DNA from: Spirochaetia bacterium
GTDB taxonomy: Bacteria; Spirochaetota; Spirochaetia; SZUA-6; Bin103
NCBI GenBank assembly: GCA_965208575.1
Contig: CBDBOV010000006.1
Location: 1,088,001-1,152,000 of the forward strand
Reading direction: 5' to 3'
Length of the DNA: 64,000 bases
The notes below the pieces were generated by a model. It searched no databases, was not told the origin of the DNA, and worked only from the letters and a program-made list of their open reading frames with translations. The translations under genes were made by a program, and so were the position numbers. Below, one piece after another: positions 2,611 through 43,956 of the stretch; positions within the stretch are counted from its first letter, which is position 1; every line of letters starts with the position of its first letter.

Positions 2611-2879
2611 GGCGGGAGACTACCGGAGCCGGTCACTCAACGGCAACACGCACCGCCGCTCGACATTCTTCCCTGTTGACGCTTTCTCCGTCCCATCCCC
2701 CGCCCCACGTTGACTCAGCGTGTCTCATAGCTCGAAATATGGTTATACTTCTAAATCACATGCTTCACCAATGCGCTCGTTTGCGCGGACAACTCGCACA
2801 GCCTGATGACCGCTACAGTGTATAGCCTATTCTGGCTGCCATCCTCGCACCGACGGTGTGTATAGAAAGGAAGGGACTT

Positions 2880-16264: not shown

Positions 16265-16320
16265 GTTTGTGGATACTTATAAATTATGTAAAATCACTAT
16301 ATTTTTATGAAAAGTGAACG
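16265..16320. promoter_or_regulatory. AT-rich divergent promoter region between the GT-C operon and adhesin 1
   Basis: Abrupt AT-rich patch ATACTTATAAATTATGTAAAATCACTATATTTTTATGAAAAG; candidate TTGTGG-16-TAAAAT on + and TTCATA-17-CATAAT on -. Confidence 0.55.
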
Positions 16321-31300: not shown

Positions 31301-34300
31301 GACAACGACCGCGTGATGGTGAGCGTGAGCGCGCCGGACGACGCGGTGACCGAGGGCGACCCGGCGGCGTTCGCGGTGCGCCTGTCGCGACCGGTGGCAG
31401 CGCCTGTGACCGTGAACTGGGCGACGGGAGCGGACCCGAGCGATTCGGCGACGCCCGGCGAAGACTACACGCAGCACGCGGCAACGGCGCTGACGTTCGC
31501 GGCCGGCACGGCCACGCTGACGCAGACGGTGACGGTGGCGACCGACGACGACGATCTGCTGGAGCCGGACGAGACGTTTTCCGTGTTGTTGACCGATCCG
31601 GCCGACGCCGGCGTGCAACCCGCGGCGGAGAGCGGCCTGCCGCCCGGAGTGGAACTGCACCCGGACCACAGCAAGGCGGTGGCGACCATCGCGGACAACG
31701 ACGCGGTAACCGCGACCGTGGCCGCCGCGGCGCCGACCGTGATGGAGGGCGGCGACGCCACGTTCACGGTCAGCCTCGGCGGCGCCGCGCCGCGGGCGCC
31801 GGTGACCGTCGAGTACCAGGCCGGCGGCACGGCCACGCCGGGGGAGGACTTCACCCCCCCGTACGCAGATACCGGCGGCACGCTGACCATCGCGCAGCCG
31901 GCCACCAGCGTCGACGTCGTCGTCACCACGCTCGCCGACGACGTGTTCGACGGTGGCGAGACGCTGGCGCTGACCCTGACCGGCGCGGCCACCGGCGTCG
32001 GCGTGGCGCGCGTGGCCGCGCCGGACAGCGCCACGGTCACCATCACCGACGACGAAACGGTTACGGCGACCATCACCGCCAACGCGGCCACGGTGGCGGA
32101 GGGCGGCGTCGCCGGCTTCACCGTACACCTGAGCGGCAGCGTTACCGGCGTACCGGTGACGCTCGGCTGGCACACCGCCGCCAGCTCGGCGACCGCGGGC
32201 ACCGACTACCGGCTCACGCCGCCCGCGGCGGGAACGCGCGGAACGGTGACCATCGCTGCCGGCGACACGACCGGTGCGATCGCCATCGCCACCCTGGAGG
32301 ACGGCATCCTCGATCCCGGCGAGACGCTGACGGTCACTCTGGACGCTGCCTCGACCACCCCCGGCGTGGCCATCGGCTCGCCCCGCGGCGCCTCGACCGT
32401 TATCGCCGACACCGGCAGCGCGACGGTGGACATCGCCGGTCCCGAACCGGTCACCGAGGGCGACCCGGCGGTGTTCACCGTGACCCTGTCGTTCCCGGTG
32501 GCGGCGCCGGTCACCGTGCTCTGCTCGACGCGCGACGGGACCGCGACCGCCGGCAGCGACTACCTGCCGCTGGCGGAGACGCTGACGTTCCCGCCCACGG
32601 AAACCAGCCTGACGGTCACCGTGACCACCCTCGGCGACTACCTGCTGGAGGGGGAGGAACACTTCGACGCGCTCCTCTCCGCCCCCGCCGGCCTGCCGGC
32701 CGGGGTATCGATCGGCACGCCGGCGGCGACGGTCGTGCTGCTGGACGTGATCGTGCCGGTGGAGGTGTCGTTCGAACGGGAACGCTACGCCGCGCACGAA
32801 GGCGGCGCGGACGCCGTCGTGGCCGTGCTGCTCGACCAGGCGCCGGGGCGGCCGGTGCGTGTGCCGCTGACCACCGCCGGGCGCGGCGGCGCGACCGGCG
32901 ACGACTACACCGGGGTGCCGGCGGCGGTGACCTTCGGCGAGCATGAGACGCTGCGCACCTTCACCGTGACGGCGGTCGACGACAGCGTGGTGGACCCGGG
33001 CGAGTCGGTACTGATCGGCTTCGGGGCGCTGCCGCCGGCGGTGAACGCCGGCACGCCTCGGGAAACCGTCGTCGACCTGGTCGACGACGACGAAGCACGC
33101 GAGGAAGTGCTGGAAGAGACCCTGGCGACGTTCGGCCGCGGCATCCTGGGGAGCACCGCCCGGCTCTGGACCCACAACCCGCCCTGCGCCCTGGCCGCAA
33201 CCGCCGCCATCGGCGGCCACGAGATCCGCCTCACCCCCGACGACCTCAACGCACCCGGCGAACTGCACGCTCCGATCGCCGCCGACGACGAACCTCGGGC
33301 CATGAGCGTCGACGACCTGCTGCGCGACAGCGCCTTCGCCACGTCGCCGCAGCGCGGCTCGCGCCCCGCCGACCCGTGCTGGACGCTGTGGGGCCGCGGC
33401 GACGTTCAGGCGTTCCGCTCCGGCGACCCCGGCGACGACACCTACCATGAAGGAACCCTCAAGGCGGCGTGGCTGGGCGCCGACGTGGCGCTGCACGACA
33501 CGCCCGTGCTGGTCGGTTTCGCCGTGTCGCGCAACGTCGGCAGCGCGCACTACGCCTACGCCTACGACGACGGCATCCGACAGCTCAGAGAAGGAACGCT
33601 GGACATCGGCACCACCGCCGTGCATGCCTATCTGCGCCGCCCGGTGACCGCCGACCACGCCGGCTACTGGGGCATCGCGGGCTTCGGCGGCGGCACGGCG
33701 GCCGACACGCCCGCCGGCCGGCGCGCGGAGGCCAGCGACCTCACCCTGCTCATGGGCGCGGTCGGGCTGCGCGGCGTGCTGGCGTCGACGACGGCACCGC
33801 TGCCGGCCGCGGCCGGCGCCGCGCCGGACACGGCGGGCGGGCTCCGGCGCGGCGAGCTGGCGCTGTACGCCGACCTGGGCGCCCTGGTCCTCACCACCGG
33901 TAGCGGCGAGCGGGCCATCGACGGCCTGCACGTCCCGGTGGCGCGGGTGCGCGCCGGCACCGAGATCTCGGAGACCAGGCCCGCCGGCAGCGCCGGCGCG
34001 CTGACCGCCTCGCTGGAGTTGTGGGGCGGGTGGGACGGCGGCGCCGGAGCTCGCGGCTCGGGGCTCGGATCGTCACTGGCGCTGCGCTACGCCGGGGCAC
34101 GCTTCTCGGCGGAAGCGCGCGGCCAGGTGCTGCTGGCCTCCCACTACCTGGAGTACGGCGCCGGTCTCACCGGCCGCTACGGTCCGCGGCAGGACGGCAG
34201 CGGCCTGTCGCTGTCGTTGTCGCCGAGCTGGGGCTCGTCCACCGGCGCTCCGTACGACGTTTGGCCGGATGACCTGCTCGCCTCCACCGCCGTCACCACC

Positions 34301-34540
34301 GGCGCGGCGCTGGCCGCCGGCGTCGGCTACGGCCTCTCCGTTCCCGGCGGCATCGTGACCCCGTTCGCCGAGGCAACCCTGAGCGCCGACGCCACCCGCG
34401 TGCGGGTCGGCGCCCGCTGGAACCTGCTTGCCACCGGTTCCGCCGGCAGCCTCGACCTGGAACTCGCCGGCGAACGCCGCACCCGCTCCGGCGCCGCCCC
34501 CGAACACGCGCTCCACGTCGAAATCGGTCTCACCTACTGA
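16307..34540 (+). CDS. Giant surface adhesin (~6,000 aa): signal peptide, FN3 domain, ~46 Calx-beta-like domains, C-terminal autotransporter-like beta-barrel
   Basis: Uninterrupted ORF; signal-like TLFVVLISLAAAPSAVA-QQ; FN3 at ~16870-17180; Calx-beta motifs (V.EG, TAT.G.DY, D...E..ET, ATI.DDD); barrel region WTLWGRG...LSPSWG...TPFAE ending in LTY. True start is probably downstream, e.g. GTG 16382. Confidence 0.88.
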   Translation: MKSERSLVYRSISCVRRWQDTPRPDVRLGGRPVVRTGGLVRTGALARTLFVVLISLAAAPSAVAQQAGITVGWGAAHYIAEEGGQRAALELRMSAAPGRQVTVHFVVDRRGGATAADHDYIPSSVVFEPTDTVRWIVVRAVDDDEDDDGTDHLRERLQVHFVILPPDSASFVYGHRTATVELRDNDGVRPPTVPRLRAATPLDGAVELQWDEGLHGGVPASFQLFIQDEGTGGQQWFVTGIAGTARSITVGTDLADIGRALVNGNRHRFELRARNAAGASGWVRAFATPSAMPPAAVGVRWTEEDYTAFEGGRPAVARVRLDTALDDDVTIPLWHAFEDLTSPADVVLPDPLNITIAAGQRDATLTIAAVDDGFREPEEAVQLWFSQLPEGIAFEASTARPNTRILLRDNDIRLRARFKERTYEVREGGSVDVTLLLDRTNPGVLGTLHLSREDRRGASGADLVGVPPSVTFLPHASTLTFTLEATDDDVDDEHESVNLHLVGPFSPAVGAGTPSTATIRIIDNDGPAKASFDKPVYTVAEGGSATVRVRLTRAPGVAAEVRLWSGPAGGASAADYGGIPRSLTFGPRQTEAAFVVTAAVDEVDETGEQVHMHLVRLQVNPVILAGTPRSAVVHLTDVPVTGVKVAYERDSYSATEGGASVTVAVVLDRAPGRRVTVPLTHTAQGGATAADYNSSAIPATVTFAATEVRKTFTVSATADNVSETGERVRFTFAEPHRLPPGVLVGTPPAATVHLTETPPAAVSYEQDSYTVQEGGPAVAVAVVLDRTPGRTVTVNLTRANQGATSDADYRGVPAGVTFAATETRRTFSVTATEDRVYETGESVLLGFATLPAGLNAGARPETTLHLSENRAPAVQVGFEYNSYTAQEPPQEVAAEVAVVLDRAPGRPVTVSLTRTNQGGASDADYGGVPASVAFGPADTRSTFRVTATRDQPDPGESVLLGFAANLPAGVSVDTWPTARVHLRDFDRRSDPTTTVRFERNRYAAAEGGAKAVVSVLLSPRVQSRVTVPLAARNQGDTANADYAGVPASVTFAAGATRRSFTVTASVDTDSPEPGEAVRLVFDNLPSGVNATTPGAATVHLIDAATTLAAVRFERDSYTAQEGGPPAVVAVLLDQAPGRTVTVPLTASHHGASTADYGGVPASVTFGAAETRKTFTVNATRDLTAESGERVTLAFGELPVGVVSERPRQTVVHLIDAATTAVRARFERDSYTAQEGEPATPVAVVLDRAPGRAVQVRVTATPEGGAAGADYHVTPSGGRLNFGANDTRATISVRAATDAEMETGERVRLGFVNLPAGVSPGTPEQATVHLTDAGLTPVKVSFEHNRYSAREGETGTVVTARLDRAAGRSVTVNLSRQNLGTTSDADYRGVPASLTFAATGTHARLTFQAVRDTIHDPNESVRLDLTMLPAGVSPGRWPATLLQLVDVNTRQVWVSFARDRYTATEGEPGAQVQVMLNEPAAREVVVPLLSTNLGGATDADYTKTPVTVPDRVTFAATESRQTFTVSARDDAVLESGEEVRYDFGALPGGVGFGSRTRTTVQLAEQSTVTVRFARDSATAHEGGAGAVVTVQLDRPPGRTVSVALTRTNQGGATDADYNHAALPSSVTFAAADTARSFTVTATADDTSAESGESVRFRIGAGLPEGVVLGSPAETTVHLTDAGTQSLKVSFERDRYAAAEGGTAVVVAHLDQTPDRTVQVALTVTRGEGVTSGDYSGIPATISFAAAGATRRSFTVRAVADELDEGIESLRLGLSMLPAGVSPGSHPAATVYLTDTDTPPVRVSFEQDSYTARFGGPNAVVAVVLDRAPGRTVSVPLTETAQGPTKWATPRYRGVPDSVTFGPSERRKTFTVAATGSRFDRGDGVLVGFGTLPPAVESQRHEQTVVHLVGRTAQLRSVRFERDSYTAREGGPNAVVAVLLNPASSLPVDVRLTRTEQGAAPADYSGIPDTVRFTGGAGRVQFTVTATPDTVAEGDEAVHLEFVSPPAGVSRGSPPDTIVHFTDADTTLVQVRFARYSYTAVEGGDGVEVAALLDQAPGRTVTVPLTTDHHERTGADDYRGVPDSVTFGTGDTRATFTVTAIADSSHETGEWVRIGFGRMPGGVTRGTPPRTLVHLTDTTPPAVQVSVADTTVEEGDAAPFTVSLSQAVPAAGVTVRLRTAPAAADSATAGTDYEEATTAATIAPGATALTISVMTTEDSLLEPSETFSVALQDGVLPPGVSLSTTDAEATATITDDDVAAATVTGPDPPTVAEGGAAVFTVTLSGGTAAADVEVTYETGGTATRGDDYTSPYTGANGTLTIAIGATTAALTVTTQTDTILDPGETLAVALTGAETAVGAASVGDPGRAEVRITDPNEVTVGVSAADDAATEGEPVKFEVSLSHQVAAEVSLVWKTETREGDTATVGTDYAAVSETALTFAAGTTELTQTVSVATTDDALLEADETFTVVLGEMASGLPSGVVLDTDASEAQGTVADNDTVAAAIAAVATEVAEGADAAFTVSLTGATTTGAVAVTYQTGGTATSGDDYTAPGGTLTVAAAAASASLTVTTLADTIFDPGETLKVTLTGAATTGTANVADPPGDSAQVTITDDDEVTVSVSAPDDAVTEGTAAEFDVSLSQQVAAAVTVNWATTTATGDTATAATDYATQAATTLTFAAGTDDLTQAVSVATTDDTAREDGETFTVVLTETAGGLPDGVDLHEDDYQAQATIADNDPVTASIAADAKTVAEGSAAAFTVTLSGDMAPAAVTVTYQTGGTATSGADYTAPYGGDSGTLTIAAGDTTGALTVTTLTDTILDRNETLTLTLTGASTTVGAANVAAAPGNSAQVTITDDDTATVSVSAPDDEVDEGDAAEFEVSLSQQVAAAVTVNWATTTATGDTATAGTDYATAAATTLTFAAGTDDLTQTVSVATTEDTLLEAAETFTVVLTATAGGLPDGVQLHAVNDEAKATIADDDTATASIAAAAKTVAEGGAAAFTITLSDATTSAAAVITYGTGGTATAGTDYTAPSGSLTLTAGASTAPLSIATADDAILDPGETLQVTLTGASTTVGAARVAASPGDRAQVTITDGDKVTVRVSAPDDEVDEGDAAEFEVSLSQQVAAAVTVNWATTTATGDTATAGTDYATAAATTLTFAAGTDDLTQTVSVATTEDTLLEADETFTVVLTATAGGLPDGVQLHADNDEAQATIADDDTATASIAAVAKTVAEGGAAAFTVTLSGATTTAAAVITYGTGGTATSGDDYTAPSGSLTLTAGASTATLSIATADDAILDPGETLKVTLTGAATTGTANVADPPGDSAQVTITDDDEVTVSVSAPDDAVTEGTAAEFEVSLSQQVAAAVTVNWATTTATGDTATAATDYTPQAATTLTFAAGTDDLTQTVSVATTDDTAREDGETFTVVLTATAGGLPDGVQLHADNDEAQATIADNDPVTASIAADAKTVAEGSAAAFTVTLSGDMAPAAVTVTYQTGGTATSGADYTAPYGGDSGTLTIAAGDTTGALTVTTLTDTILDRNETLSLTLTGASTTVGAANVAAAPGNSAQVTITDGADVTVSVSAPDDEVDEGDAAEFEVSLSQQVAAAVTVNWATTTATGDTATAATDYATQAATTLTFAAGTDDLTQTVSVATTEDTLLEADETFTVVLTATAGGLPDGVQLHAVNDEAQATIADDDTATASIAAAAKTVAEGGAAAFTITLNDATTSAAAVITYGTGGTATSGDDYTAPSGSLTLTAGASTATLSIATADDAILDPDETLQVTLTGASTTAGAARVAAAPGNRAQVTITDDDTVTVRVSAPDDEVDEGDAAEFEVSLSQQVAAAVTVNWATTTATGDTATAATDYATQAATTLTFAAGTDDLTQTVSVATTEDTLLEAAETFTVVLTATAGGLPDGVQLHAVNDEAKATIADDDTATASIAAAAKTVAEGGAAAFTITLNDATTSAAAVITYGTGGTATSGTDYTAPSGSLTLTAGASTAPLSIATADDAILDPGETLQVTLTGASTTVGAARVAASPGDRAQVTITDGDTVTVRVSAPDDEVDEGDAAEFEVSLSQQVAAAVTVNWATTTATGDTATAGTDYATAAATTLTFAAGTDDLTQTVSVATTEDTLLEADETFTVVLTEPAGGFPDGVELHAVNDEAQATIADDDTATASIAADDAKVDEGDDAVFTITLSGATTTAAAAVTYQTGGTATSGDDYTAPSGSLTLTAGASTGALSIAIADDAILDPGETLQVTLTGASTTAGAANVAAAPGDSAQVTITDDDTVTVSVSAPDDEVDEGDAAEFEVSLSQQVAAAVTVNWATTTATGDTATAATDYATAAATTLTFAAGTDDLTQTVSVATTEDTLLEADETFTVVLTATAGGLPDGVQLHAVNDEAKATIADDDTATASIAAAAKTVAEGGAAAFTVTLSGATTTAAAVITYGTGGTATSGTDYTAPSGSLTLTAGASTATLSIATVDDTVADPGETLSVTLAAANTTAGRAAVADPPDNRAQVTITDDDTVTVSVSAPDDAVNEGDDATFKVSLAQTFAAAVTVNWATTTATGDTATAGTDYTAHAATALTFAAGTTDLTRTVTVATTEDTLLEADETFTVVLTEPAGGFPDGVELHAAADEAQATIADDDTATASIGAAAETVAEGDDAAFTITLSGATTTAPAVVTYQTGGTATSGTDYTAPYSGSNGMLTIATGAATGALTIATLTDSILDPGETLQVTLTGASTTAGAASVANPPGDSAQVTLADDDAVTVSVTAPDAAVDEGDPAQFAVRLSQQVAAAVAVNWATKTAAGDTATANTDYTAQAATALTFAAGTTDLTRNVTVATTEDTLLEAAETFTVVLTATASGLPDSVQLHADNDQAQATIADDDTATASIAAAAATVAEGDDAVFTITLSGATTTAAAAVTYQTGGTATAGTDYTVPTGSLTLTAGAATATLSIATLTDPILDPGEMLSVTLTGAATAGTATVADPPGNSAAVTITDNDRVMVSVSAPDDAVTEGDPAAFAVRLSRPVAAPVTVNWATGADPSDSATPGEDYTQHAATALTFAAGTATLTQTVTVATDDDDLLEPDETFSVLLTDPADAGVQPAAESGLPPGVELHPDHSKAVATIADNDAVTATVAAAAPTVMEGGDATFTVSLGGAAPRAPVTVEYQAGGTATPGEDFTPPYADTGGTLTIAQPATSVDVVVTTLADDVFDGGETLALTLTGAATGVGVARVAAPDSATVTITDDETVTATITANAATVAEGGVAGFTVHLSGSVTGVPVTLGWHTAASSATAGTDYRLTPPAAGTRGTVTIAAGDTTGAIAIATLEDGILDPGETLTVTLDAASTTPGVAIGSPRGASTVIADTGSATVDIAGPEPVTEGDPAVFTVTLSFPVAAPVTVLCSTRDGTATAGSDYLPLAETLTFPPTETSLTVTVTTLGDYLLEGEEHFDALLSAPAGLPAGVSIGTPAATVVLLDVIVPVEVSFERERYAAHEGGADAVVAVLLDQAPGRPVRVPLTTAGRGGATGDDYTGVPAAVTFGEHETLRTFTVTAVDDSVVDPGESVLIGFGALPPAVNAGTPRETVVDLVDDDEAREEVLEETLATFGRGILGSTARLWTHNPPCALAATAAIGGHEIRLTPDDLNAPGELHAPIAADDEPRAMSVDDLLRDSAFATSPQRGSRPADPCWTLWGRGDVQAFRSGDPGDDTYHEGTLKAAWLGADVALHDTPVLVGFAVSRNVGSAHYAYAYDDGIRQLREGTLDIGTTAVHAYLRRPVTADHAGYWGIAGFGGGTAADTPAGRRAEASDLTLLMGAVGLRGVLASTTAPLPAAAGAAPDTAGGLRRGELALYADLGALVLTTGSGERAIDGLHVPVARVRAGTEISETRPAGSAGALTASLELWGGWDGGAGARGSGLGSSLALRYAGARFSAEARGQVLLASHYLEYGAGLTGRYGPRQDGSGLSLSLSPSWGSSTGAPYDVWPDDLLASTAVTTGAALAAGVGYGLSVPGGIVTPFAEATLSADATRVRVGARWNLLATGSAGSLDLELAGERRTRSGAAPEHALHVEIGLTY
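16510..22710 (+). repeat. About 17 diverged Arg-rich Calx-beta-like repeats (~113 aa) in adhesin 1
   Basis: Consensus V.FERDSYTA.EGG..A.VAV.LDRAPGR.VTV.LT...ADY.GVPASVTF...E.GE.V.LGF..LP.GV....P....VHL.D; one more copy at ~32755-33090. Confidence 0.85.
22720..32750 (+). repeat. About 14 two-domain acidic, Thr-rich Calx-beta modules (~714 bp) in adhesin 1; core near-identical
   Basis: Shadow ORFs recur every 714 bp (27172, 27886, 28600, 29314, 30028) and with a 2151-bp superperiod (23941/26092, 24652/26803, 25021/27172). Confidence 0.9.
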
Positions 34541-34661: not shown

Positions 34662-35444
34662 TCAGTCGAAGAAGCCCTTGGGTTGGGCGGCGGCCTCCAC
34701 GGCGGCGGCCTGCTCGGCCATCCAGGCGTCGTAGCCGGCCTGGTCGTGCACGGTAAAGAAGCCGCGCATCCGGTAGTGGCCGAGTCCGCAGAGCTGGGCG
34801 CACGCTATCTCCCACTCGCCGGTGGCGGTGGCGGTGAAGCTGAGCGGTATGGTCATGCCGGGGATGGCGTCCTGCTTGACGCGCATCTCCGGCAGATAGA
34901 AGCTGTGCACCACGTCGAAGGCGGACAGTTCGATGCGAATCGGCGTGTCGACCGGGATGTGGAGCTGGTTCACCGTGACGATGTCGTCCTTGGCCATGAC
35001 GTCGTCGCGGTCCACGCCCACGGGGTTGTTCTCGGCATCGACCAGGTCGACGCTGGTGGCGCCGAACACGCCGTCGGCGCCGGGATAGTGGATGTTCCAG
35101 GCGAACTGCTGGCCCACCACGCGGATGGTGAGCGCCTCCTCGGCGGGCACCGGATTGGCGATGACGCGCGCCCACACCGGTACCGAGAGGCCGAACAGCA
35201 GCGCGATCTCGATCACCGCCACCGCGCCTTCGACGTAGCGGGAAAAGTGGCTGTGCGTGCCCTCGTAGTTGGCCTTGGGATTGCGCCGCTTGCGGAACCG
35301 CACCAGGATGAAGAAGAAGAAGATTCCCCAGCCGACGAACAGCACCAGCATCAGCAGGTGCACCCACCCGATCAGGCCGTCGACCTGGCCGGCGTGGGTG
35401 GACGCCGCCTGCGGCATCCACATGGAACGGGCAAACTCTATCAC
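34662..35444 (-). CDS. coxB: Cytochrome c oxidase subunit II (CuA), no fused cytochrome c
   Basis: Two TM helices, GQQFAW, DVVHSF, KQDAIPG, CuA motif CAQLCGLGHYRM; GTG abuts the upstream TAA. Confidence 0.93.
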   Translation of the reverse strand: MIEFARSMWMPQAASTHAGQVDGLIGWVHLLMLVLFVGWGIFFFFILVRFRKRRNPKANYEGTHSHFSRYVEGAVAVIEIALLFGLSVPVWARVIANPVPAEEALTIRVVGQQFAWNIHYPGADGVFGATSVDLVDAENNPVGVDRDDVMAKDDIVTVNQLHIPVDTPIRIELSAFDVVHSFYLPEMRVKQDAIPGMTIPLSFTATATGEWEIACAQLCGLGHYRMRGFFTVHDQAGYDAWMAEQAAAVEAAAQPKGFFD

Positions 35445-35789
35445 TTAGGTGGCCTCCGGAGAGTGCGCCGCCAGCCGGCGGATACGCCGCCGCGCGGCGA
35501 GCAGAAACGCGCCAAAGCCGGCGAACACCAGCGCCACCATGCCGAGCAGCAGCAGGATGCCCGCCTGCAGGCCCTGCACCGCCTCCTCCTGCGCGGCACC
35601 GAAGCACACCGCGCACGCGGCGGCGGTGTCGGGGATGATCGCACCGAGCAGCAGCAACCCGGCGGCGCACTGCATGACCGGCAGGCCGCGGCGCGAACGG
35701 GAAGCAGCCCGTGGTGGAACCCGGCGCCGCACCGAGAGCGGCGCGGCGCACGGCCGGCAAGGCGCGCTGAACGAGCGGACTCGCGCCAT
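35445..35789 (-). CDS. Small membrane protein with AAACAVCFG (CxxC) motif inside the cox operon
   Basis: Abuts both neighbours (TAG-ATG upstream, TAA-GTG downstream); signal-like hydrophobic stretch, CxxC, then one TM; alternative start at ATG 35675. Confidence 0.6.
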   Translation of the reverse strand: MARVRSFSAPCRPCAAPLSVRRRVPPRAASRSRRGLPVMQCAAGLLLLGAIIPDTAAACAVCFGAAQEEAVQGLQAGILLLLGMVALVFAGFGAFLLAARRRIRRLAAHSPEAT

Positions 35790-35999
35790 CTAGCCGGCGT
35801 CCTTTACCGCGGCAACCGCGGCCAGCACGCGCCGCTCCACCAGCAACAGCACCAGCAGCGCCAGCGCCGCGCCGCAGCCGCCGGCCACCGCCAGCACCGG
35901 GTTGCGGTTGGCGAACCAGGTGAAGCACCAGATGGAGAAGAACGCCAGGCCGGCACTGGCGCAGGAGATGAACACGACGTGGATCACCTTGAGCGACAT
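35790..35999 (-). CDS. Small 2-TM membrane protein (69 aa) inside the cox operon
   Basis: MSLKVIHVVFI...; start overlaps the subunit IV stop (TGATG); two hydrophobic helices. Confidence 0.7.
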   Translation of the reverse strand: MSLKVIHVVFISCASAGLAFFSIWCFTWFANRNPVLAVAGGCGAALALLVLLLVERRVLAAVAAVKDAG

Positions 36000-36349
36000 C
36001 AGTGGTGCTCCTCCAGCGCCGGCGCCTCCAGGATCGCCCGCTCGCTGGCGAAGGTATCGAAGTAGCCGAACATGAACAGCGCGATCATGACGATGAAGAA
36101 GATCGCCGAGAAGATCAGCACCTTGAAGATGAACGGGAACTTGTCGTGGAACAGGTGCATGAAGATGCCCGCCACCAGGGTGCCCTTGACGCTTGCCACC
36201 ACCAGGGCCACGGCAATGCCGGCCCCCACCGGCAGGTGCAGCCGGCTCACCGCGACGGTCACCACGGTCAGCACCATCAGCGAAATGAACACGATGAAGT
36301 AGACCCGCACCTGCTGCTGCAGGTGCTCGACGGAATGCTCAGCGCTCAT
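35999..36349 (-). CDS. coxD: Cytochrome c oxidase subunit IV (prokaryotic COX4_pro family)
   Basis: Three TM; Y..VF..L.VLT..TV and VA.VK..LV...FMHL signature; ATG at 36349 after GGGAG. Confidence 0.85.
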   Translation of the reverse strand: MSAEHSVEHLQQQVRVYFIVFISLMVLTVVTVAVSRLHLPVGAGIAVALVVASVKGTLVAGIFMHLFHDKFPFIFKVLIFSAIFFIVMIALFMFGYFDTFASERAILEAPALEEHH

Positions 36350-36377
36350 CGGCAACTCCCACGGACAACGCCATCGG

Positions 36378-36980
<603 letters not shown>

Positions 36981-36986
36981 GCGCCG

Positions 36987-38771
36987 CTAGATTCTCTTCA
37001 GGTGCTGGGGCGAGAAGTCGCGCTTCGACCTCGGCACGCTGTACTCGTACGCTCCGCGGTACACGGTGATCGGCTGTGCGAAATTGCCGTGCCCGAGCGG
37101 CGGCGACGTGGTGGCCCACTCCAGGGTGGTGCCCTGCCACGGGTTGTCCTTTACCTTCTCGCCGTTCTTGAGGCTGACGAAGAAGTTGACGATGAAGAAC
37201 ACCTGCGCCAGCGCCAGCCCCCAGGAGGAGAAGGTGATGAGCTGGTTGATCCACAGGTAGTCCTGGGCGTGCGCGTAGGTGGCGCCGCCGTCGTACAGGC
37301 GCCGCGACACGCCGGCCATGCCGAGCACGAACATCGGCATGAACGTGCCGATCATGAACACCAGCGATGGCCAGAAGTGCCAGCGCCCCAGGGTGTCGTT
37401 CATGCGCCGCCCGGTCACCTTGGGATACCAGTAGTAGATGCCGGCGAACAGCGCCAGCAGCGTTCCCGGCGCCACCACGAAGTGAAAGTGGCCGATCACG
37501 TAGTAGGTGTCGTGCAGGTGGATGTCCGCCACCGACAGCCCGAGCGGCAGGCCGGTGAGCCCGCCGATGCCGAACATCGGAATGAACGCCAGCGCGAACA
37601 GCATCGGCGTGGTGAAGCGGATCGATCCGCCCCACAACGACAGGATCATCACCGTCAGGATGATGATCGACGGCACCGAGATGATCATGGTGGTGAGCTG
37701 GAAGAAGGTGCTGATCGCGGTGCCCATGCCGGTCAGGAACATGTGGTGCGCCCACACGACGAAGCTCATGAAGCCGAGAAAGATCACCGAGTACACCAGC
37801 GCCTTGTAGCCGTACAGCGGCTTGCGCGAGTTGTTGGCCAGAACCTCGCACACGATGCCCATGGCCGGCAGGATGAGCACGTACACCTCCGGGTGGGCAA
37901 GGAACCAGAACAGGTGCTGCCACAGCAGCGCATTGCCGCCGCCGCTGCCGGTGTACGCCTCGCCGCTGATCACCAGGCCGGAGGGCATGAAGAAGCTGGT
38001 GCCGGCGACGCGGTCGAGAAGCTGCATGAAGCCGGCCACCTCCAGCGGCGGGAACGCCAGCACCAGCAGCAGGCTGGTCACGAACTGCGCCCAGATGAAG
38101 AACGGCAGCCGCATGAACTTCAGCCCCGGCGCGCGCAACTGCACGATGGTGGTGATGATGTTGATCGAGCCGAGCAGCGAGGAGTTGATCAGGAACACCA
38201 TGCCCAGCAGCCACCAGGTCTGGCCGGCGGTCTCGATCACCGCCAGCGGCGGGTAGGAGGTCCAGCCACTCTTGGCGGCGCCGCCGGGGATGAAGAAGCT
38301 GACCAGCATGATCACGCCGCCGACGAAGTACAGCCAGTAGCTGGCGGCGTTGAGCTTCGGGAACGCCATGTCGGGGGCGCCCACCTGCAGCGGCACCAGG
38401 TAGTTGCCGAATGCGCCCACGGCCAGCGGCACCACGCCCAGGAACACCATGATGGTGCCGTGCATGGCGCCGAGCTGGTTGTAGAACTCCGGCAGCATGA
38501 CCCCCTCGGGCATGCGGGTGACGCCGAACAGGCGTCCGATCACCGGCAGCGCCTGCTCCGGATAGGCGAGCTGCCAGCGCATCAGCAGAATGAAGCAGAA
38601 GCCCAGAAACAGGAACACCAGGGCGGTGATCCCGTACTGGATGCCGATCACCTTGTGATCTACGGAGAAGACGTACTTGCGGATGAAACTCTCGGGCGCG
38701 CCGTGGCCGTGATCGCCGTGGCCATGGCCGTGGTCGTGCCCGTCGGCGTGTGCGTGTCCGTTGTTGTGCAC
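36987..38771 (-). CDS. coxA: Heme-copper oxidase subunit I (A-family-like, K-channel Lys absent)
   Basis: DHKVIG, MHGTIM, PDMAFP, GWTSYPPL, HPEVY, VWAHHMF, HDTYYVIGHFH, SRRLY; His-rich N-terminus. Confidence 0.95.
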   Translation of the reverse strand: MHNNGHAHADGHDHGHGHGDHGHGAPESFIRKYVFSVDHKVIGIQYGITALVFLFLGFCFILLMRWQLAYPEQALPVIGRLFGVTRMPEGVMLPEFYNQLGAMHGTIMVFLGVVPLAVGAFGNYLVPLQVGAPDMAFPKLNAASYWLYFVGGVIMLVSFFIPGGAAKSGWTSYPPLAVIETAGQTWWLLGMVFLINSSLLGSINIITTIVQLRAPGLKFMRLPFFIWAQFVTSLLLVLAFPPLEVAGFMQLLDRVAGTSFFMPSGLVISGEAYTGSGGGNALLWQHLFWFLAHPEVYVLILPAMGIVCEVLANNSRKPLYGYKALVYSVIFLGFMSFVVWAHHMFLTGMGTAISTFFQLTTMIISVPSIIILTVMILSLWGGSIRFTTPMLFALAFIPMFGIGGLTGLPLGLSVADIHLHDTYYVIGHFHFVVAPGTLLALFAGIYYWYPKVTGRRMNDTLGRWHFWPSLVFMIGTFMPMFVLGMAGVSRRLYDGGATYAHAQDYLWINQLITFSSWGLALAQVFFIVNFFVSLKNGEKVKDNPWQGTTLEWATTSPPLGHGNFAQPITVYRGAYEYSVPRSKRDFSPQHLKRI

Positions 38772-38786: not shown

Positions 38787-39638
38787 CTAGCTTGACGGGA
38801 CCTCCATCACGGCATCCACGGTGGCCTGCTCGCCGATGCCGACCGTAACGCTCACGGTCTGCGCCGGCAGCCGCTCGTGCCAGATCTCCACCTCGTAGGT
38901 GCCGGCCGGCAACCCGCTGATCGTGAACGTGCCGTCCTCGCCGGTAACCGCGAAATAGGGGTGGTCGAACACCGCCGCCCAGGCGTTCATCCAGGGGTGC
39001 ACGTCGCACTTGATCGCGAACGGCGCCGGCTCCGCCTTGTCGAACACCTTTTCCAGCTCGGTGCGGAACTGCGGCATCGCCTCGTTGAACTCGGCGTTCA
39101 CCTTGGAAAACGCATGCACGTTGTGCAGCGTGCCGTCCGGATTGAGAATCTTCAGCGTCTGTCCGACGCGCAGGCCGAACACGTGCGGCGCGTACTGGCA
39201 GCCGCCCTGGTCGAACTCGACCACCGCGTCGGGCGTGTCGTGATCCATGTCCGGCAGCGAGGCGCTCGTGATCTGCACCATCACGTTGGCAATGGCCTGC
39301 CCCTCGCCGAGCACCAGCACCTGGCGGCGCCGCGGATTCTCCTGGTTCTTCTCGTCGCAGATCGGATCGGCGGCCATGTCGAGCACCGCCATCTCCGGAG
39401 CGTCGCCATTGAAGGTCACGGTGCCGCTGATGGATGCGTTGTTGGTATCGGTTTCGGTCGCCGCCGCGGGCGCTTCGGCACTCGTCGATGCTCCGGACCC
39501 GGATGCGGAGGCGCCGCCGCCTTCGTCGTCGTCGCCGCAGCCGGCGAGCAGCAGTGCCAGCGCGAGGACCGGGAGGAACCGGAGATGGGAGGTGAACGAG
39601 AGTTTCGGCGCGGCGTAGCGCAGGAACCTGGTGCGCAT
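38787..39638 (-). CDS. Lipoprotein with cupredoxin-like copper site and carboxypeptidase-regulatory-like domain
   Basis: Lipobox LLAG-C; HNVH and CDVHPWM (His/Cys/His/Met type-1 Cu ligand pattern); DGTFTISGLPAGTYEV; 15 bp upstream of coxA. Confidence 0.8.
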   Translation of the reverse strand: MRTRFLRYAAPKLSFTSHLRFLPVLALALLLAGCGDDDEGGGASASGSGASTSAEAPAAATETDTNNASISGTVTFNGDAPEMAVLDMAADPICDEKNQENPRRRQVLVLGEGQAIANVMVQITSASLPDMDHDTPDAVVEFDQGGCQYAPHVFGLRVGQTLKILNPDGTLHNVHAFSKVNAEFNEAMPQFRTELEKVFDKAEPAPFAIKCDVHPWMNAWAAVFDHPYFAVTGEDGTFTISGLPAGTYEVEIWHERLPAQTVSVTVGIGEQATVDAVMEVPSS

Positions 39639-39900
39639 GTTCGGTAGGGCCTCCTCGGGGGATGACGGGTCGGATATGCGGATCGGCGGACGCAATTGCC
39701 CTCCGATCCGGCGTCCTTCGGGTTGCGGCGCGCAAAGCAAGACCGGCTGCCCGAGTTCTGCAAGAAGCTACGTCAGCGCCCGGCGGACTGTCAACCGCAA
39801 GTGGCCCGCCCCGGCCCGCGTTGCGGCCTCCCTCGGGCAGCCGGCGGCGGCATCTTCGGCGTGCGGCGCGGGGCCGCACGCGACGGGCCGAAAACCGGCG

Positions 39901-40404
39901 CTACGGCTGCGGTTCACGGCGCGGGCGCTGCCGGTCGCGCCGGTCGCGCCGGTCGCGCCGTTTCTCGTAGCCCTCGGCCATGTGGTGGCGGAACGGCAGG
40001 ATGCGGTCCGGGACCGGTACGCCGCGAAATTCGGCGCGGCACAGGTAGCACACCGCCATCATCGGCACGCCGCGATAGATCAGCAGGTCGACCAGCGCCA
40101 GCACCATCAGGCTGATCCCGTACGTGAACGGCACCAGGATCGCGCCCACCACCACGAGCCCGATGCCCAGTACGCGCGGAAACGCCTTCTGGCGGAAAAA
40201 GCGGCGGCAGCCGCAGATCGGACACTCCTCGAAGTCGGCGGCCGCCGTCACGTCGTAGCTGCGCCGGCAGGTGCCGCACGCCAACTCGCCGGCCTGCCCG
40301 CCGACGGCCAGCGGCGCGCCGCAGCCGTCGCACTCGGCGCGCACCTGCAGCCGTCCCTCGCCGCCGCCCGTGCCGCCCGCGCCGGAGCGGCGCGCCGCCG
40401 TCAC
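39901..40404 (-). CDS. Cys-rich (four CxxC) zinc-ribbon membrane protein
   Basis: 3' part of ORF 39901..41160; GTG overlaps the upstream TGA (GTGA); CDGC, CGTC, CPIC, two TM, CYLC. Confidence 0.7.
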   Translation of the reverse strand: MTAARRSGAGGTGGGEGRLQVRAECDGCGAPLAVGGQAGELACGTCRRSYDVTAAADFEECPICGCRRFFRQKAFPRVLGIGLVVVGAILVPFTYGISLMVLALVDLLIYRGVPMMAVCYLCRAEFRGVPVPDRILPFRHHMAEGYEKRRDRRDRRDRQRPRREPQP

Positions 40405-41216
40405 AGCACCACCCCGTAGCGCAGCAGGAAGAACCGGTAGGAGAAGTCGCCGATGATCGCCGCCACCACCACCACGTACAGGATGCCGGTGGCGGCCTGC
40501 GTGGACTTGGCGCGCAGGGTGCGCTGCACCAGCACGTTGGCGGCGAGCGGAAACAGCACGCCGAAGAACACCGCCACCGCCACCAGGAAGCCGTCCAGGG
40601 TGGCCACGAACGCGTGCAGCGGCAGCGGATAGCCCTGGTACGGAACACCCGCGGTGGCCAGCGCCACCGCGTCCCACACCAGGCGCAGCGCCAGCAGCGC
40701 CGTGTACACGGTGACCGCGCGCGCCAGGATGGCGATCGGCAGCCGCTCCACGTTCAGGTACCAGTGGCCGAGCACCATGCAGTACAGCGCCATGCCCAGC
40801 GTGAGCCCGCCGAGCAGGGTCAGCGCGGCGGCCCCGGCCGGCGCGGCCGCCGGCGGCGTGCGCGCCACCGCCGCGGCCGCGGTCACCAGCGCGCCCAGCA
40901 GCGAGGGCAGCGCCACCAGCGGCAGGTTGGGCCGCGGGCGCTCCCATTGGCTCCAGGTCACCGCCAGCAGGCCCACCAGCCACACGCCGGCCAGCACCGG
41001 CAGCGCGGCCGGCGGCAGCCACGGCGCGCGGCCGGCGGCGGCCGGCGGCCCCGCGAACAGCAGCGCGAACAGCCCCAGGCTGAGCAGGAAGCAGGCGACG
41101 CCCAGGTTGAACCGGTAGAAGCCGCGGTCGATGGCGGCGCCGGCATTGGCCAGGAAGCACAGCGGGTACGCCATCGCAAAGGCCAGGAAGCCGCTCAGCG
41201 ACAGTTCGGTCAGCAC
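40401..41216 (-). CDS. Multi-pass membrane protein of unknown function (MVLGHWYL motif)
   Basis: About 8 hydrophobic segments; conserved-looking GHWYL and STQAATGILYV; coupled to both neighbours. Confidence 0.75.
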   Translation of the reverse strand: MLTELSLSGFLAFAMAYPLCFLANAGAAIDRGFYRFNLGVACFLLSLGLFALLFAGPPAAAGRAPWLPPAALPVLAGVWLVGLLAVTWSQWERPRPNLPLVALPSLLGALVTAAAAVARTPPAAAPAGAAALTLLGGLTLGMALYCMVLGHWYLNVERLPIAILARAVTVYTALLALRLVWDAVALATAGVPYQGYPLPLHAFVATLDGFLVAVAVFFGVLFPLAANVLVQRTLRAKSTQAATGILYVVVVAAIIGDFSYRFFLLRYGVVL

Positions 41217-41229
41217 CCCGTGATGCGCC

Positions 41230-43704
41230 TCACAGCGACTTCACCGCGGCCTCGATCTGCCGCGTGGCGTCAATGTAGGAGGTGCCCGGCGGAAACGTGA
41301 GCGGCGCCCCGAAACGCACCGCAACCCGGGTCCGGAAACGGCGCCGGCGCGGTTCGCTGACCAGGTGCACGGGCACCACCGGGGTGTGCGACTCGACCGC
41401 CAGCATGCCGGTGCCGCTCTGGAACGGCAGCATCGGCCGCCCGACGCGCTGTTCGCCCTCCGGAAAGATCACCACGCTCCAGCCGGAGTCCATCAGCCGG
41501 CCCATGTGCTCCAGGCTGGCGCGAATCGCGTTCTCGCGCGACAGCGGAAACGCGTTGGCGACCAGCGCCGCGAAGATGCCGGTCAGCCGTTTGCCGAAGG
41601 TGATCTCCGCGGCCGCCGCGAACGACAGGTGGCGCCGCCACGCCGGCGGCGTGGCCTTGGCCAGCACCATGCTGTCGCCGCGCACCGCGTTGTGGTTGGC
41701 GGCGAACAGCAGCGGGCCGCCGGTGCCGGCGGGCAGGTGCTCCAGGCCGCTGGCCCGCACGCGGTAGCGGACGCTGAACAGGGGAAACACCACCACCCGG
41801 TGGAGCACCTCGCGCAGCAGCGAGAACCACACGCTCAGCGGCCAGGTGTAGAACGGCGGCAGCGCCGCCCTGGCCTGCGCCTGGGAGTCGAGCAACTTCT
41901 GCAGCTCCGCGAACGTGGTCTGCGAGCCCACCAGCGACTCGTCGATGTAGACGCCCATCTCCTGCTCGATGATCGACAGCATCTCCACCCGCTTCAGCGA
42001 GTCGAGGTCCAGGTCGCCGCCGACGGTGTGCTCCGGCAGCACCTGCTCCTGCGCCACGCCGCTCACCTCCGAGACCAGCCGCACCAGGCGCTCCCTGGGG
42101 TCGCCGGCGGCCGCGGCCGGCGCGCGCGGCCCGGCCGCGGGAGCGGCGCTCGGCAGTCCCGCGCTCAGGGCGTCGACCAGGACCGCCTTCTTCACCTTCA
42201 GCGTGTGGGTGCGCGGAAAGTCCGCCTCCGGCCACACGGTGTGGCCGCGGATCTGCTGATGCTCGGCCAGCGCGCGGTTCGCTTCGGCCACGATGTGCGG
42301 CGCCCGCGCGGGCTCCTCCAGCAGGAACACGGCGTGCACCTGGGTGTCCTGGCCCTGCTTCAGCCCCACCACCGTGGCGTCGGTCACCGCCGGGATGCGA
42401 TGCAATACCGCCTCGATGTCCTCCGGAAACACGTTCTGGCCGTTGGCGAGCACGATCATCTCCTTGACCCGCCCGCGAATGTGCAGGTGCCCGGCATCGT
42501 CGATGTACCCGATGTCGCCGGTCCGGTACCAGTCGCCGTCGAACGCGGCGGCGGTCTGCTCCGGCGCCTGCCAGTAGCCGGGGGTTATGTTGGGGCCGCG
42601 CACCTGGATCTCGCCGCCGGCGGCGATGCGCACGTCGACGCCGGGCACCGGCGGGCCGACCGAGTCGAAGCGCGCCTCGGTCAGCGAGTGGCAACTGATC
42701 ACCGGCGACGCCTCGGTGGCGCCGTAGCCCTGCAGCACGCTGACCCCGAGCAGGTGCCACTTCTCGCCGAGCGCCTGGTCGAGCGCCGCGCCGCCGGAGA
42801 CCACGATGCGCAGGTGGCCGCCGAAGCGCGCGTGCACCTGGCGAAACAGCAGCCGGCGCAGCGCCACCGGCAGCCGGCGCGCCAGCTTCATCAGCAGATC
42901 CCAGGCGTGCTGCTTGCCGCGGTTGGCCACTTCGCGCTCGATGCTCTTCATGAACAGGTCGAGCGCCTGCGGCACCAGCAGCATCATGTTGACGCGCCGC
43001 TCCTGCATCGTCTTGAGCAGGATCGCCGGCTGCCGGCTGGTCACGAAGGTGATGCTCGCGCCGCAGCCGAGGCCGGCGAACAGCGAGCCCATCTGCTCGA
43101 ACATGTGGCTCAGCGGCAGCAGGCTCAGCATCCGGAACGAGGCATCACCGGGAATCACCTGCTGCACCGACGCGAGGTTGGCCATCAGGTTGCCGTGCGT
43201 CAGCAGCACTCCCTTGGCGTCGCCGGTGGTGCCCGAGGTGAACATGATCTCGGCCAGGTCGTCGCCGGCGAGCGAAGCGGGCTCGGCCGCCGGCCGGTCG
43301 TAGATCAGGCCTTCCAGGTCCTCGAACAGGATCGCCGGCAGGCCGAGAGCGGCATCACCCCCGGTAGCGTGCGCGGTGATCGCCAGCGACGGCGCCGTCC
43401 GGGCAATCACCTGCCGCACGAAGTCGGCCGTGGAGCGCATGTCCAGCGGCACCAGGACCGCGCCGATGCGCAGGCATCCGAAGAAGGCGAACACCCAATG
43501 CGGTGCGTTGGGGCCCCACAGGATGACCCGGTCGCCCTTGCCCACGCCGCGCTCGCGCAGCAGCGCGGCCACTTGCGCACAGGCGTGGCGCAATGCCCGG
43601 TAGCTCCACACGCGGTAGCGGAACCCCGGCTTGAACAGGAGCGCCGGGCGGTCGCCGAACCGGCGCACGATGTCGTCCAGGAAGTCGTTGACCGTCAGAT
43701 GCAT
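41230..43704 (-). CDS. Long-chain acyl-AMP/CoA ligase-acyl carrier protein-lysophospholipid acyltransferase fusion (Aas-like)
   Basis: AMP-binding FTSGTTGDAKG, QGYGATE, YRTGD, T.TLKVKK; ACP DLDSL; acyltransferase ANH.....D and IFPEG; start taken at ATG 43704. Confidence 0.88.
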   Translation of the reverse strand: MHLTVNDFLDDIVRRFGDRPALLFKPGFRYRVWSYRALRHACAQVAALLRERGVGKGDRVILWGPNAPHWVFAFFGCLRIGAVLVPLDMRSTADFVRQVIARTAPSLAITAHATGGDAALGLPAILFEDLEGLIYDRPAAEPASLAGDDLAEIMFTSGTTGDAKGVLLTHGNLMANLASVQQVIPGDASFRMLSLLPLSHMFEQMGSLFAGLGCGASITFVTSRQPAILLKTMQERRVNMMLLVPQALDLFMKSIEREVANRGKQHAWDLLMKLARRLPVALRRLLFRQVHARFGGHLRIVVSGGAALDQALGEKWHLLGVSVLQGYGATEASPVISCHSLTEARFDSVGPPVPGVDVRIAAGGEIQVRGPNITPGYWQAPEQTAAAFDGDWYRTGDIGYIDDAGHLHIRGRVKEMIVLANGQNVFPEDIEAVLHRIPAVTDATVVGLKQGQDTQVHAVFLLEEPARAPHIVAEANRALAEHQQIRGHTVWPEADFPRTHTLKVKKAVLVDALSAGLPSAAPAAGPRAPAAAAGDPRERLVRLVSEVSGVAQEQVLPEHTVGGDLDLDSLKRVEMLSIIEQEMGVYIDESLVGSQTTFAELQKLLDSQAQARAALPPFYTWPLSVWFSLLREVLHRVVVFPLFSVRYRVRASGLEHLPAGTGGPLLFAANHNAVRGDSMVLAKATPPAWRRHLSFAAAAEITFGKRLTGIFAALVANAFPLSRENAIRASLEHMGRLMDSGWSVVIFPEGEQRVGRPMLPFQSGTGMLAVESHTPVVPVHLVSEPRRRRFRTRVAVRFGAPLTFPPGTSYIDATRQIEAAVKSL

Positions 43705-43956
43705 GGTGCACCACCGCCGCCATCGACGCCCCGCACTGCGCCGGCACACCCCTCGATCGCGACCGGATCGACACCAGTTCTCACCTGCAGCATGGCCCAT
43801 GCTACCACGCCCGCCGGTGCATGGTGGCGTGCCGCGCCGCGCCCGGTCTCCTTCAGGACGCGGCCGGCGATCGCGCGGGGGGCCGTGCAGGCGGAAGCGG
43901 TCCTCTCATGATGCCCGGGAGCATGTTCCCGCCGCGTTCGAGTCAGTCGCCACCGA

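Follow-up and report, generated by a model that had tools for sequence, protein, structure and literature searches.

A lysine-less lineage of A1-type cytochrome oxidases and a candidate carboxylate substitute for its K-pathway

Introduction

Textbooks treat the lysine of the K-pathway as essential in mitochondrial-type oxidases. The stretch of DNA analysed here (64,000 nucleotides from a Spirochaetia bacterium, contig positions 1088001-1152000, referred to below as the window) carries on its minus strand a cytochrome oxidase operon whose subunit I, CoxI (594 amino acids (aa), 36987..38771), has an isoleucine in that place. The locus raises the question of whether such an enzyme reduces O2 at all and, if so, by which route protons reach its active site. 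A first-pass annotation, made from the letters alone, had offered three answers: a D-channel-only enzyme, an alternative proton path, or a different chemistry such as the reduction of peroxide or nitric oxide (NO). Taken as a whole, the reading for which we would allow an even chance is that the operon encodes the sole, working aa3-type A1 O2 reductase of its organism, fed by a cupredoxin and equipped with a carboxylate-based substitute for the K-pathway.

The K-channel lysine is absent from an otherwise conventional subunit I

CoxI matched the Pfam COX1 family (E 5e-133). In a phmmer search of all PDB chains its closest solved relative was subunit I of the Paracoccus denitrificans aa3 oxidase (1ar1_A, E 5.7e-113), and the HMMER alignment of the two is ungapped across helices VI-VIII. 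It sets Ile371 (codon 37659..37661, minus strand) opposite the K-channel lysine (K354 in P. denitrificans, K362 in Rhodobacter sphaeroides), Ser368 opposite T351/T359, Val374 opposite S357/S365 and Cys308 opposite S291/S299. A separate MAFFT alignment (202 sequences, E. coli K-12 CyoB among them) returned the same equivalences; the four substitutions proposed in the first-pass annotation (K362 to I, T359 to S, S365 to V and S299 to C) are confirmed in every detail by the two alignments. Within the K-channel set of PMC3084760 (Table 2), in which Lys354, Thr351 and Ser291 of P. denitrificans become Ile371, Ser368 and Cys308, the exchange of Thr for Ser is the only conservative change.

The remainder of the site is intact, as had also been recognised at first sight. 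Aligned to CyoB with MAFFT, CoxI keeps D135, H284, E286, Y288, H333, H334, H419 and H421. Its six histidine ligands (H104, H293, H342, H343, H428 and H430, equivalent to E. coli H106, H284, H333, H334, H419 and H421) are each found in 164/164 members of the lysine-less clade described below, as are both key residues of the HPEVY motif, namely Glu295, which ends the D-channel and is the A1 signature, and the cross-link residue Tyr297. CoxI also contains the Mg-site His420 and the D-channel residues N123, D134, N141, S197, S198 and N204. All these metal-ligand, active-site and D-channel residues are 98-100% conserved among the 164 clade members. The features that mark the A1 type are present (six His, the Tyr/Glu pair, the D-channel, a CuA-bearing subunit II and heme A synthesis), with the K-channel as the exception.

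Against the NCBIfam equivalog TIGR02891 (CtaD_CoxA), CoxI scored 575.8 bits, under the cut-off of 670.75. NCBI calls many clade members (e.g. P0028, P0033, P0084 and P0086) 'cbb3-type cytochrome c oxidase subunit I', although they are aa3/A1-type; they too score under the cut-off, which explains these generic, wrong names. Such scores and names mislead metabolic reconstructions. The N-terminus of CoxI (38700-38771) is a His/Gly/Asp-rich tail of about 24 residues, which aligns in part with the His-rich start of P. denitrificans subunit I.

Loss of the lysine is fixed in a widespread lineage

The 120 best database homologues of CoxI among the 8000 matches listed share 70-94% identity with it, and all 120 have I, V or L in the lysine column; one homologue, at 71% identity, comes from the cultured Rhodocaloribacter litoris. 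Close homologues that retain the lysine, which would have pointed to a private mutation or an assembly error, are thus not found in that set. We then compared 80 species-representative genomic loci, with the lysine absent from 45 and present in 35. The 43 loci at 58-74% identity are lysine-less without exception, and those at 43-50% are Lys-bearing except for L061 and L070. The lysine-less genomes are labelled as Acidobacteriota/Vicinamibacteria, Thermoanaerobaculia, Verrucomicrobiota, Planctomycetota, Neomarinimicrobiota, Hydrogenedentota and Elusimicrobia; Rhodothermales, Ignavibacteria and Bacteroidota are further database names within the clade.

Two trees were built from alignments without the helix VIII columns. 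The clade forms one side of a branch in FastTree (support 100, 60/179 rows, length 0.27) and in IQ-TREE (SH-aLRT 100, 26/68 rows), and the window CoxI falls inside it in both. L070 also belongs to the clade; the lysine-less L061 and P0136 branch off separately from a Lys-bearing group. Moreover, the clade has a gene order of its own. The arrangement coxI-coxIII-coxIV-(small ORFs)-coxII, where ORF stands for open reading frame, occurs in 30/43 clade loci (coxII lies upstream in 5, and 8 are incomplete), and it is the order of the window operon. In the Lys-bearing loci coxII is directly upstream of coxI in 35/35.

The ratio of non-synonymous to synonymous substitution (dN/dS, Nei-Gojobori) between the window coxI and nine same-genus orthologues was 0.08-0.25. 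The loss of the lysine is a fixed trait of the lineage under purifying selection, neither a private mutation nor decay. That the gene is decaying, privately mutated or wrongly assembled is next to impossible, being refuted by conservation across the clade, low dN/dS, an intact operon and the status of the enzyme as sole terminal oxidase; the earlier judgement against decay is upheld on the same grounds.

The operon encodes the only oxidase of its organism

The source genome (6.5 Mb, 95% complete, ~72% G+C) contains one match to PF00115, which is this coxI, together with one COX2 and one heme A synthase (CtaA). No cytochrome bd subunit I was found in this 95% complete genome. The same family is represented by 12 further genomes, among them six single-contig assemblies of 95-98% completeness, and each has exactly one PF00115 match. 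The lysine position is legible in 11 of the 12 and is lysine-less in all of them; the twelfth is a fragment.

We are confident, if short of certain, that the operon encodes a working O2 reductase. Since the enzyme is the sole recognisable O2 reductase, has an invariant O2-type site and is accompanied by heme A synthesis, it is very unlikely to be a relic or to act as a peroxidase or NO reductase. Canonical K362 mutants do keep peroxide-driven partial reactions, which would suit an enzyme whose main substrate is NO or H2O2 instead of O2. Such a chemistry is nonetheless very improbable here, because the three CuB histidines and the cross-link Tyr are invariant in the clade, the enzyme is the only terminal oxidase in 13/13 family genomes and heme A synthase is encoded. 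Slow NO reduction by heme-copper oxidases is described in the covered part of PMC11214002, as are NO reductase families that lack the Tyr or have altered CuB/FeB ligands, whereas CoxI has the Tyr and three His.

Losses in subunit I are coupled to gains

Alignment columns were compared between 164 clade members and 35 Lys-bearing neighbours, and the changes fall mainly in helix VIII (37653..37679, minus strand, which includes Ser365, Ser368 at the T359 position, Ile371 and Thr373) and in lower helix VI with the VI-VII loop (37830..37850, minus strand, with Cys308 at the S299 position, Glu309, Asn313 and Asn314). Several polar side chains are lost. Position 371 (E. coli K362) is I in 147, L in 9 and V in 8 clade members against K in all 35 neighbours; 308 (E. 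coli S299) is A in 105, G in 21 and C in 19 against S in 35; and 374 (E. coli 365) is A in 116, V in 23 and S in 12 against N in 35. Alongside these, 372 (E. coli 363) is L in 155 where the Lys group has T in 28, and 375 (E. coli 366) is L in 112, M in 27 and F in 25 where the Lys group has W in 32. Other positions have gained polarity. Ser is found at 365 (E. coli A356) in all 164 members, as opposed to G in 19 and A in 16 neighbours, and 373 (E. coli F364) is T in 114 and S in 47, as opposed to F in 35. The loop contributes Asn at 314 (163 members; F in 26 neighbours) and at 313 (150 members; T in 21 neighbours). Position 309 (E. coli E300) is E in 164 members and D in 11, H in 10 and Q in 9 neighbours, and Ser368 is kept in 163/164 members and is also S in the Lys-bearing group. 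Most likely, the canonical K-pathway, of which the side chains Lys362, Ser299, Ser/Asn365, Thr363 and Trp366 are lost, has been remodelled rather than simply abandoned.

A compensating basic residue was sought in the same columns, and no new conserved Lys, Arg or His was found in CoxI. The objection that a lysine elsewhere in subunit I might stand in for the missing one consequently does not apply. A K-like path might still be assembled from subunit I alone, through Glu309, Asn313/314, Ser365, Ser368 and Thr373, with the CoxII residue Glu79 (introduced below) lying off the path. The constancy of these residues favours such a path (Glu309 in 164/164, Asn314 in 163/164, Ser365 and Ser368 in ~100%), but Lys-bearing oxidases, E. 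coli CyoB for one, can also have a Glu at 309, which is not specific to the clade, and subunit I offers no ionisable residue at the depth of 371. We consider this explanation distinctly unlikely.

Subunit II has gained a second glutamate in its transmembrane helix

CoxII (260 aa, 34662..35444, minus strand; Pfam COX2) carries the CuA motif C-x3-C-x3-H-x2-M, is without a cytochrome c domain and was aligned to 1ar1_B, 1m56_B and 2yev_B. Its transmembrane helix 2 contains Glu72 (codon 35229-35231, minus strand), the equivalent of the K-entrance Glu (R. sphaeroides E101 of subunit II), and, seven residues or two turns above it, Glu79 (codon 35208..35210, minus strand) at the position of a canonical Pro (R. 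sphaeroides P108 of subunit II). Glu79 is our candidate for the replacement of the lysine. The phmmer alignments to 1ar1_B and 1m56_B place Arg69 opposite the entrance Glu; this assignment was rejected for Glu72, which is preferred because the His-x5-Glu spacing is common to the Lys-bearing CoxII proteins of the same phyla and because of the alignment to 2yev_B.

For comparison across loci, the lysine-less set consisted of 37 loci and the window CoxII (n = 38), and 32 Lys-bearing loci were informative. The residue seven positions after the entrance Glu is acidic in 37/38 lysine-less CoxII proteins (Glu in 36, Asp in 1) and in 0/32 of the Lys-bearing loci, where it is nearly always Pro or Thr and Val in one. 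The pattern E-x6-E-x9-P recurs in 120/120 of the best CoxII homologues (50-95% identity). Glu89 of E. coli CyoA was considered as a further example of the +7 acid and set aside, as it is rather the entrance Glu displaced by one residue.

The CuA loop shows a further difference. Between its two cysteines the window CoxII has Gln, as do 119/120 of the best homologues and 35/37 lysine-less loci; 26/35 Lys-bearing loci have Glu there. In canonical enzymes the Glu between these cysteines also binds the Mg/Mn site. Given the exchange of that Glu for Gln, the metal site at the interface of subunits I and II may differ too, as far as the alignments indicate.

A modelled interface places the new glutamate on the side facing CoxI

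We modelled CoxI (residues 30-570) together with CoxII using ESMFold2. The complex scored 0.87, compared with 0.00 for the best of 3 controls, and the score mark applied is reached by 51/78 solved complexes and 2/108 mismatched pairs. Contacts agreed between runs to at least 98%, and the predicted local distance difference test (pLDDT) value of the partner was at least 84. The model supports binding of CoxI to CoxII, short of showing it; aa3 complexes have already been solved, so a pass may reflect likeness to them.

In the model, CoxII helix 2 meets CoxI along a one-sided stripe (residues 68, 71-72, 75-76, 79-80, 82-83 and 86-88), and because the stripe is one-sided Glu72 and Glu79 both face CoxI. 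The CoxI side of the interface comprises helix VIII residues 362, 365-366, 369-370, 372-373, 376-377 and 379-386 and the loop 315-318 on the negative (N) side of the membrane. Depths were matched from the listed pair CoxI 376/CoxII 43 and from the basic residues at the N-side ends of the two CoxII helices; by this matching Glu79 would lie about level with CoxI residues 371-373. The predicted interface and the change of Phe to Thr/Ser at 373 fit a polar line Glu79-Thr373-Ser368-Ser365-Tyr297, entered at Glu72 and Asn313/314.

A carboxylate-based K-pathway as the favoured proton route

Taken together, these data lead us to propose, with somewhat less than even confidence, that Glu79 took over the K-channel lysine's role, giving a carboxylate K-pathway at the subunit I/II interface of an otherwise textbook two-channel A1 pump. 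Protons would be taken up at the N-side loop residues Asn313/Asn314 and at Glu72, the usual entrance Glu of subunit II. They would then pass to the buried Glu79 on helix 2, presumed to be hydrogen-bonded to Thr/Ser373, and onwards through Ser368 and Ser365 of helix VIII to the cross-linked Tyr297. On this route Glu79 would act both as a protonatable relay and as the charge compensator for the lysine, much as Glu286 does in the D-channel. The travel of protons along this line is what we infer from the substitutions, their conservation and the modelled orientation of Glu79.

The principal competitor is a D-channel-only enzyme, in which the intact D-channel admits all eight protons per O2, the K region is sealed and Glu79 is structural or unrelated. 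In its favour, the D-channel and Glu295 are fully conserved, and the positions of the Lys, S299 and S365 are all hydrophobic or small. The portion of 10.1101/2020.03.01.968255 covered here proposes a scheme of the same kind for acidophilic iron oxidisers and their lysine-less oxidases. Such a scheme leaves unexplained, however, a fixed ionisable Glu in a transmembrane helix (120/120) and, on the same side of the enzyme, the new hydroxyls at 365 and 373 and Asn313/314. Furthermore, blocking the K-pathway in canonical enzymes nearly abolishes turnover despite an intact D-channel, and a review states that mutating residues at the start and end of these channels abolishes activity. We regard the D-channel-only enzyme as unlikely, though not negligibly so. 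Among the three answers of the first-pass annotation, the alternative proton path is the one strengthened by the gains at Glu79, Thr/Ser373, Ser365 and Asn313/314, and peroxide or NO chemistry is the one weakened, by the invariant O2-type site, the heme A synthase and the lack of any other O2 reductase.

Several points tell against the takeover by Glu79. The association between Glu79 and loss of the lysine rests on essentially one evolutionary event, and L061, the one independent lysine-less lineage with context, is without the +7 acid. The equivalent of the entrance residue Glu72 is itself absent in 5/38 lysine-less proteins, so the +7 acid is better kept than the entrance Glu. A buried Glu79 could instead serve packing, or contacts with lipid or a small subunit. 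As for the model, residue 371 itself is outside the interface list, and the complex was read at the level of interface residue lists. Our literature search found no assay of any clade member.

A cupredoxin lipoprotein is the probable electron donor

The gene that precedes coxI encodes a lipoprotein (317 aa, 38787..39740, minus strand) with an amicyanin-like cupredoxin domain and a C-terminal CarboxypepD_reg beta-sandwich. Pfam CarboxypepD_reg covers residues 263-313, and a weak NCBIfam amicyanin match covers 189-253. The residues His206, Cys245, His248 and Met251 (trimmed-sequence numbers 107, 146, 149 and 152) do not vary among 31 homologues; the reference from L006, which contains a stop codon, was left out of the alignment. 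With the 31-row alignment the AlphaFold2 (AF2) model reached a pLDDT of 94.7, compared with 40.9 from the single sequence, and its top Foldseek matches were amicyanin, pseudoazurin and plastocyanin (E 1.7e-6, prob 1.00). Homologues of the lipoprotein lie in the flanks of 16/43 lysine-less and 14/35 Lys-bearing oxidase loci.

On the strength of this predicted fold and its position, the amicyanin-like lipoprotein is the probable electron donor to CuA. Electrons would pass from the membrane-anchored blue copper protein to the CuA of subunit II. Alternative complex III (ACIII) was considered as the electron source and rejected, since the genome has no NrfD-family match and the single cytochrome b gene is ~535 kb away.

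The operon and its surroundings

The operon consists of seven close-packed ORFs on the minus strand, separated, by their ORF coordinates, by gaps of 15, 6, 22, -1, 0 and 0 bases; the description of it as intact and tightly coupled is borne out. Downstream of the lipoprotein and CoxI lies a short form of CoxIII (200 aa, 36378..36980, minus strand). Its first two helices are probably missing, because the Pfam COX3 match spans only positions 74-255 of the 258 in the profile. It is followed by the prokaryotic subunit IV, CoxIV (118 aa, 35999..36355, minus strand), which matches Pfam COX4_pro and the NCBIfam family caa3_sub_IV (41.9 bits, cut-off 37.25).

Two small ORFs separate coxIV from coxII. 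The first, a hydrophobic ORF of 69 aa (35790..35999, minus strand), is an ORF call with counterparts in only 2 loci by tblastn. The second (114 aa, 35445..35789, minus strand) is a small conserved membrane protein built from a signal peptide, a Cys-x-x-Cys-Phe/Tyr-Gly motif, one transmembrane helix and a basic tail. Homologues occur in 18 lysine-less loci and, among the Lys-bearing ones, in L063 alone; the protein may serve as an additional subunit or in copper handling. Its annotated ATG may be too far upstream, with the real start at Met39 (35675).

Upstream of the cupredoxin gene is an 856-aa acyl-CoA ligase-like protein (41230-43800, minus strand), whose C-terminal part seems, from its sequence, to combine a carrier protein with an acyltransferase-like region. 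Adjoining its gene is that of a 271-aa polytopic membrane protein (40401-41216, minus strand). Neither this protein nor the 69-aa and 114-aa ORFs has a family match in Pfam or NCBIfam.

Two giant surface-protein genes flank the cox operon. One (16307-34540, plus strand) encodes 6077 aa with Calx-beta repeats and, towards its end, a LapA-like domain. The second (48539-64000, minus strand) extends past the window; its product exceeds 5147 aa and contains cadherin-like, Big_9, PKD and Calx-beta domains. Lastly, a region of low G+C content (2001-6147, ~58% as against ~71% around it) contains a gene with a GmrSD-type endonuclease N-domain and an AAA_15/AAA_21/DUF3696 ATPase gene, and looks like an acquired defence island.

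Discussion

The first-pass annotation held K362 to be essentially invariant in A-family oxidases, which proved to be overstated. We took the best 150 representatives of 50%-identity clusters, a sample biased toward relatives of the query. The lysine column is filled in 133 of these, with Lys in 77 and another residue in 56 (I 19, Q 12, L 11, V 5, then E, A, M, T, H and F), and the trees require at least four to five switches between Lys and hydrophobic states. A separate clade of subunit I proteins of ~800-860 aa (within P0170-P0269) has Gln at the lysine position in 11 cases and His in 1, and Glu occupies it in the representatives P0162 and P0221. The P0182/P0185 pair and the P0203 group are further lysine-less lineages in this sample.

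Lysine-less cases have also been published. In the part of 10.1101/2020.03.01.968255 covered here, the A2-type oxidases of acidophilic Fe(II) oxidisers are reported to have an Ile-type residue for Lys and to have lost the entrance Glu of subunit II, and Degli Esposti et al. call this a rare A-family enzyme without a functional K-channel. The main text of that paper has 0 occurrences of six phylum names from the present clade. The covered part of PMC8239418 infers that archaeal family A oxidases lost the K-channel about seven times, and it also mentions a 'K^C-channel' whose typical residues are common to some family A and family C oxidases. Our literature search returned only these acidophile, archaeal and K^C cases, and no account of the absent lysine or the subunit II Glu of this clade. 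Since lysine-less A-family oxidases are in print for other lineages, the absence as such is less surprising. What is new here, judging from the alignments, is the coupling of lysine loss to gains, namely Glu79 in CoxII and Thr/Ser373, Ser365 and Asn313-Asn314 in CoxI.

A widespread lineage without the lysine, for which this enzyme is the only oxidase, is a natural test of whether the lysine acts as a proton relay, as charge compensation or as a gate. If Glu79 did take over its role, the oxidase cycle would have no chemical need of the lysine in its reductive half, and the lineage would be a natural experiment in which the parts played by the two channels can be told apart. The buried Glu that subunit II gained alongside the loss provides a concrete hypothesis open to mutagenesis.

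In B-family oxidases a Glu on the transmembrane helix of subunit II is the channel entrance, which provides a precedent for an accessory-subunit carboxylate feeding a lysine-free path. The K-channel analogue of the B-family ba3 enzyme is likewise without Lys, being built of Thr, Ser and Tyr according to the covered part of PMC3084760. B-family enzymes are without a D-channel, however, whereas that of CoxI is intact, and B-family chains match CoxI only at E about 1e-5 to 1e-6. The lysine-less COX1 proteins of acidophiles and archaea, as far as 10.1101/2020.03.01.968255 and PMC8239418 were covered, are likewise A-family, have an Ile-like residue for Lys and keep the D-channel. The acidophile COX1 is A2 and deep-branching and has lost the entrance Glu. 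The present clade, in contrast, is A1, since the helix VI Glu is kept; it has mostly retained the entrance Glu and has added a second.

The best solved relatives remain the canonical A1 aa3 oxidases of P. denitrificans (1AR1/1QLE) and R. sphaeroides (1M56), at E 5.7e-113 and 5.8e-112. The metal ligands, the cross-link Tyr, the D-channel, the Glu286 equivalent, a CuA subunit II with its entrance Glu, and subunits III and IV are common to both. The clade differs in having Ile, Cys/Ala and Val/Ala where those enzymes have the K-pathway Lys, Ser299 and Ser365, and Glu rather than Pro seven residues after the entrance Glu in subunit II helix 2. The window operon departs from the canonical enzymes further still, with the gene order coxI-III-IV-x-x-II instead of II-I, a short subunit III and a cupredoxin lipoprotein as the probable donor.

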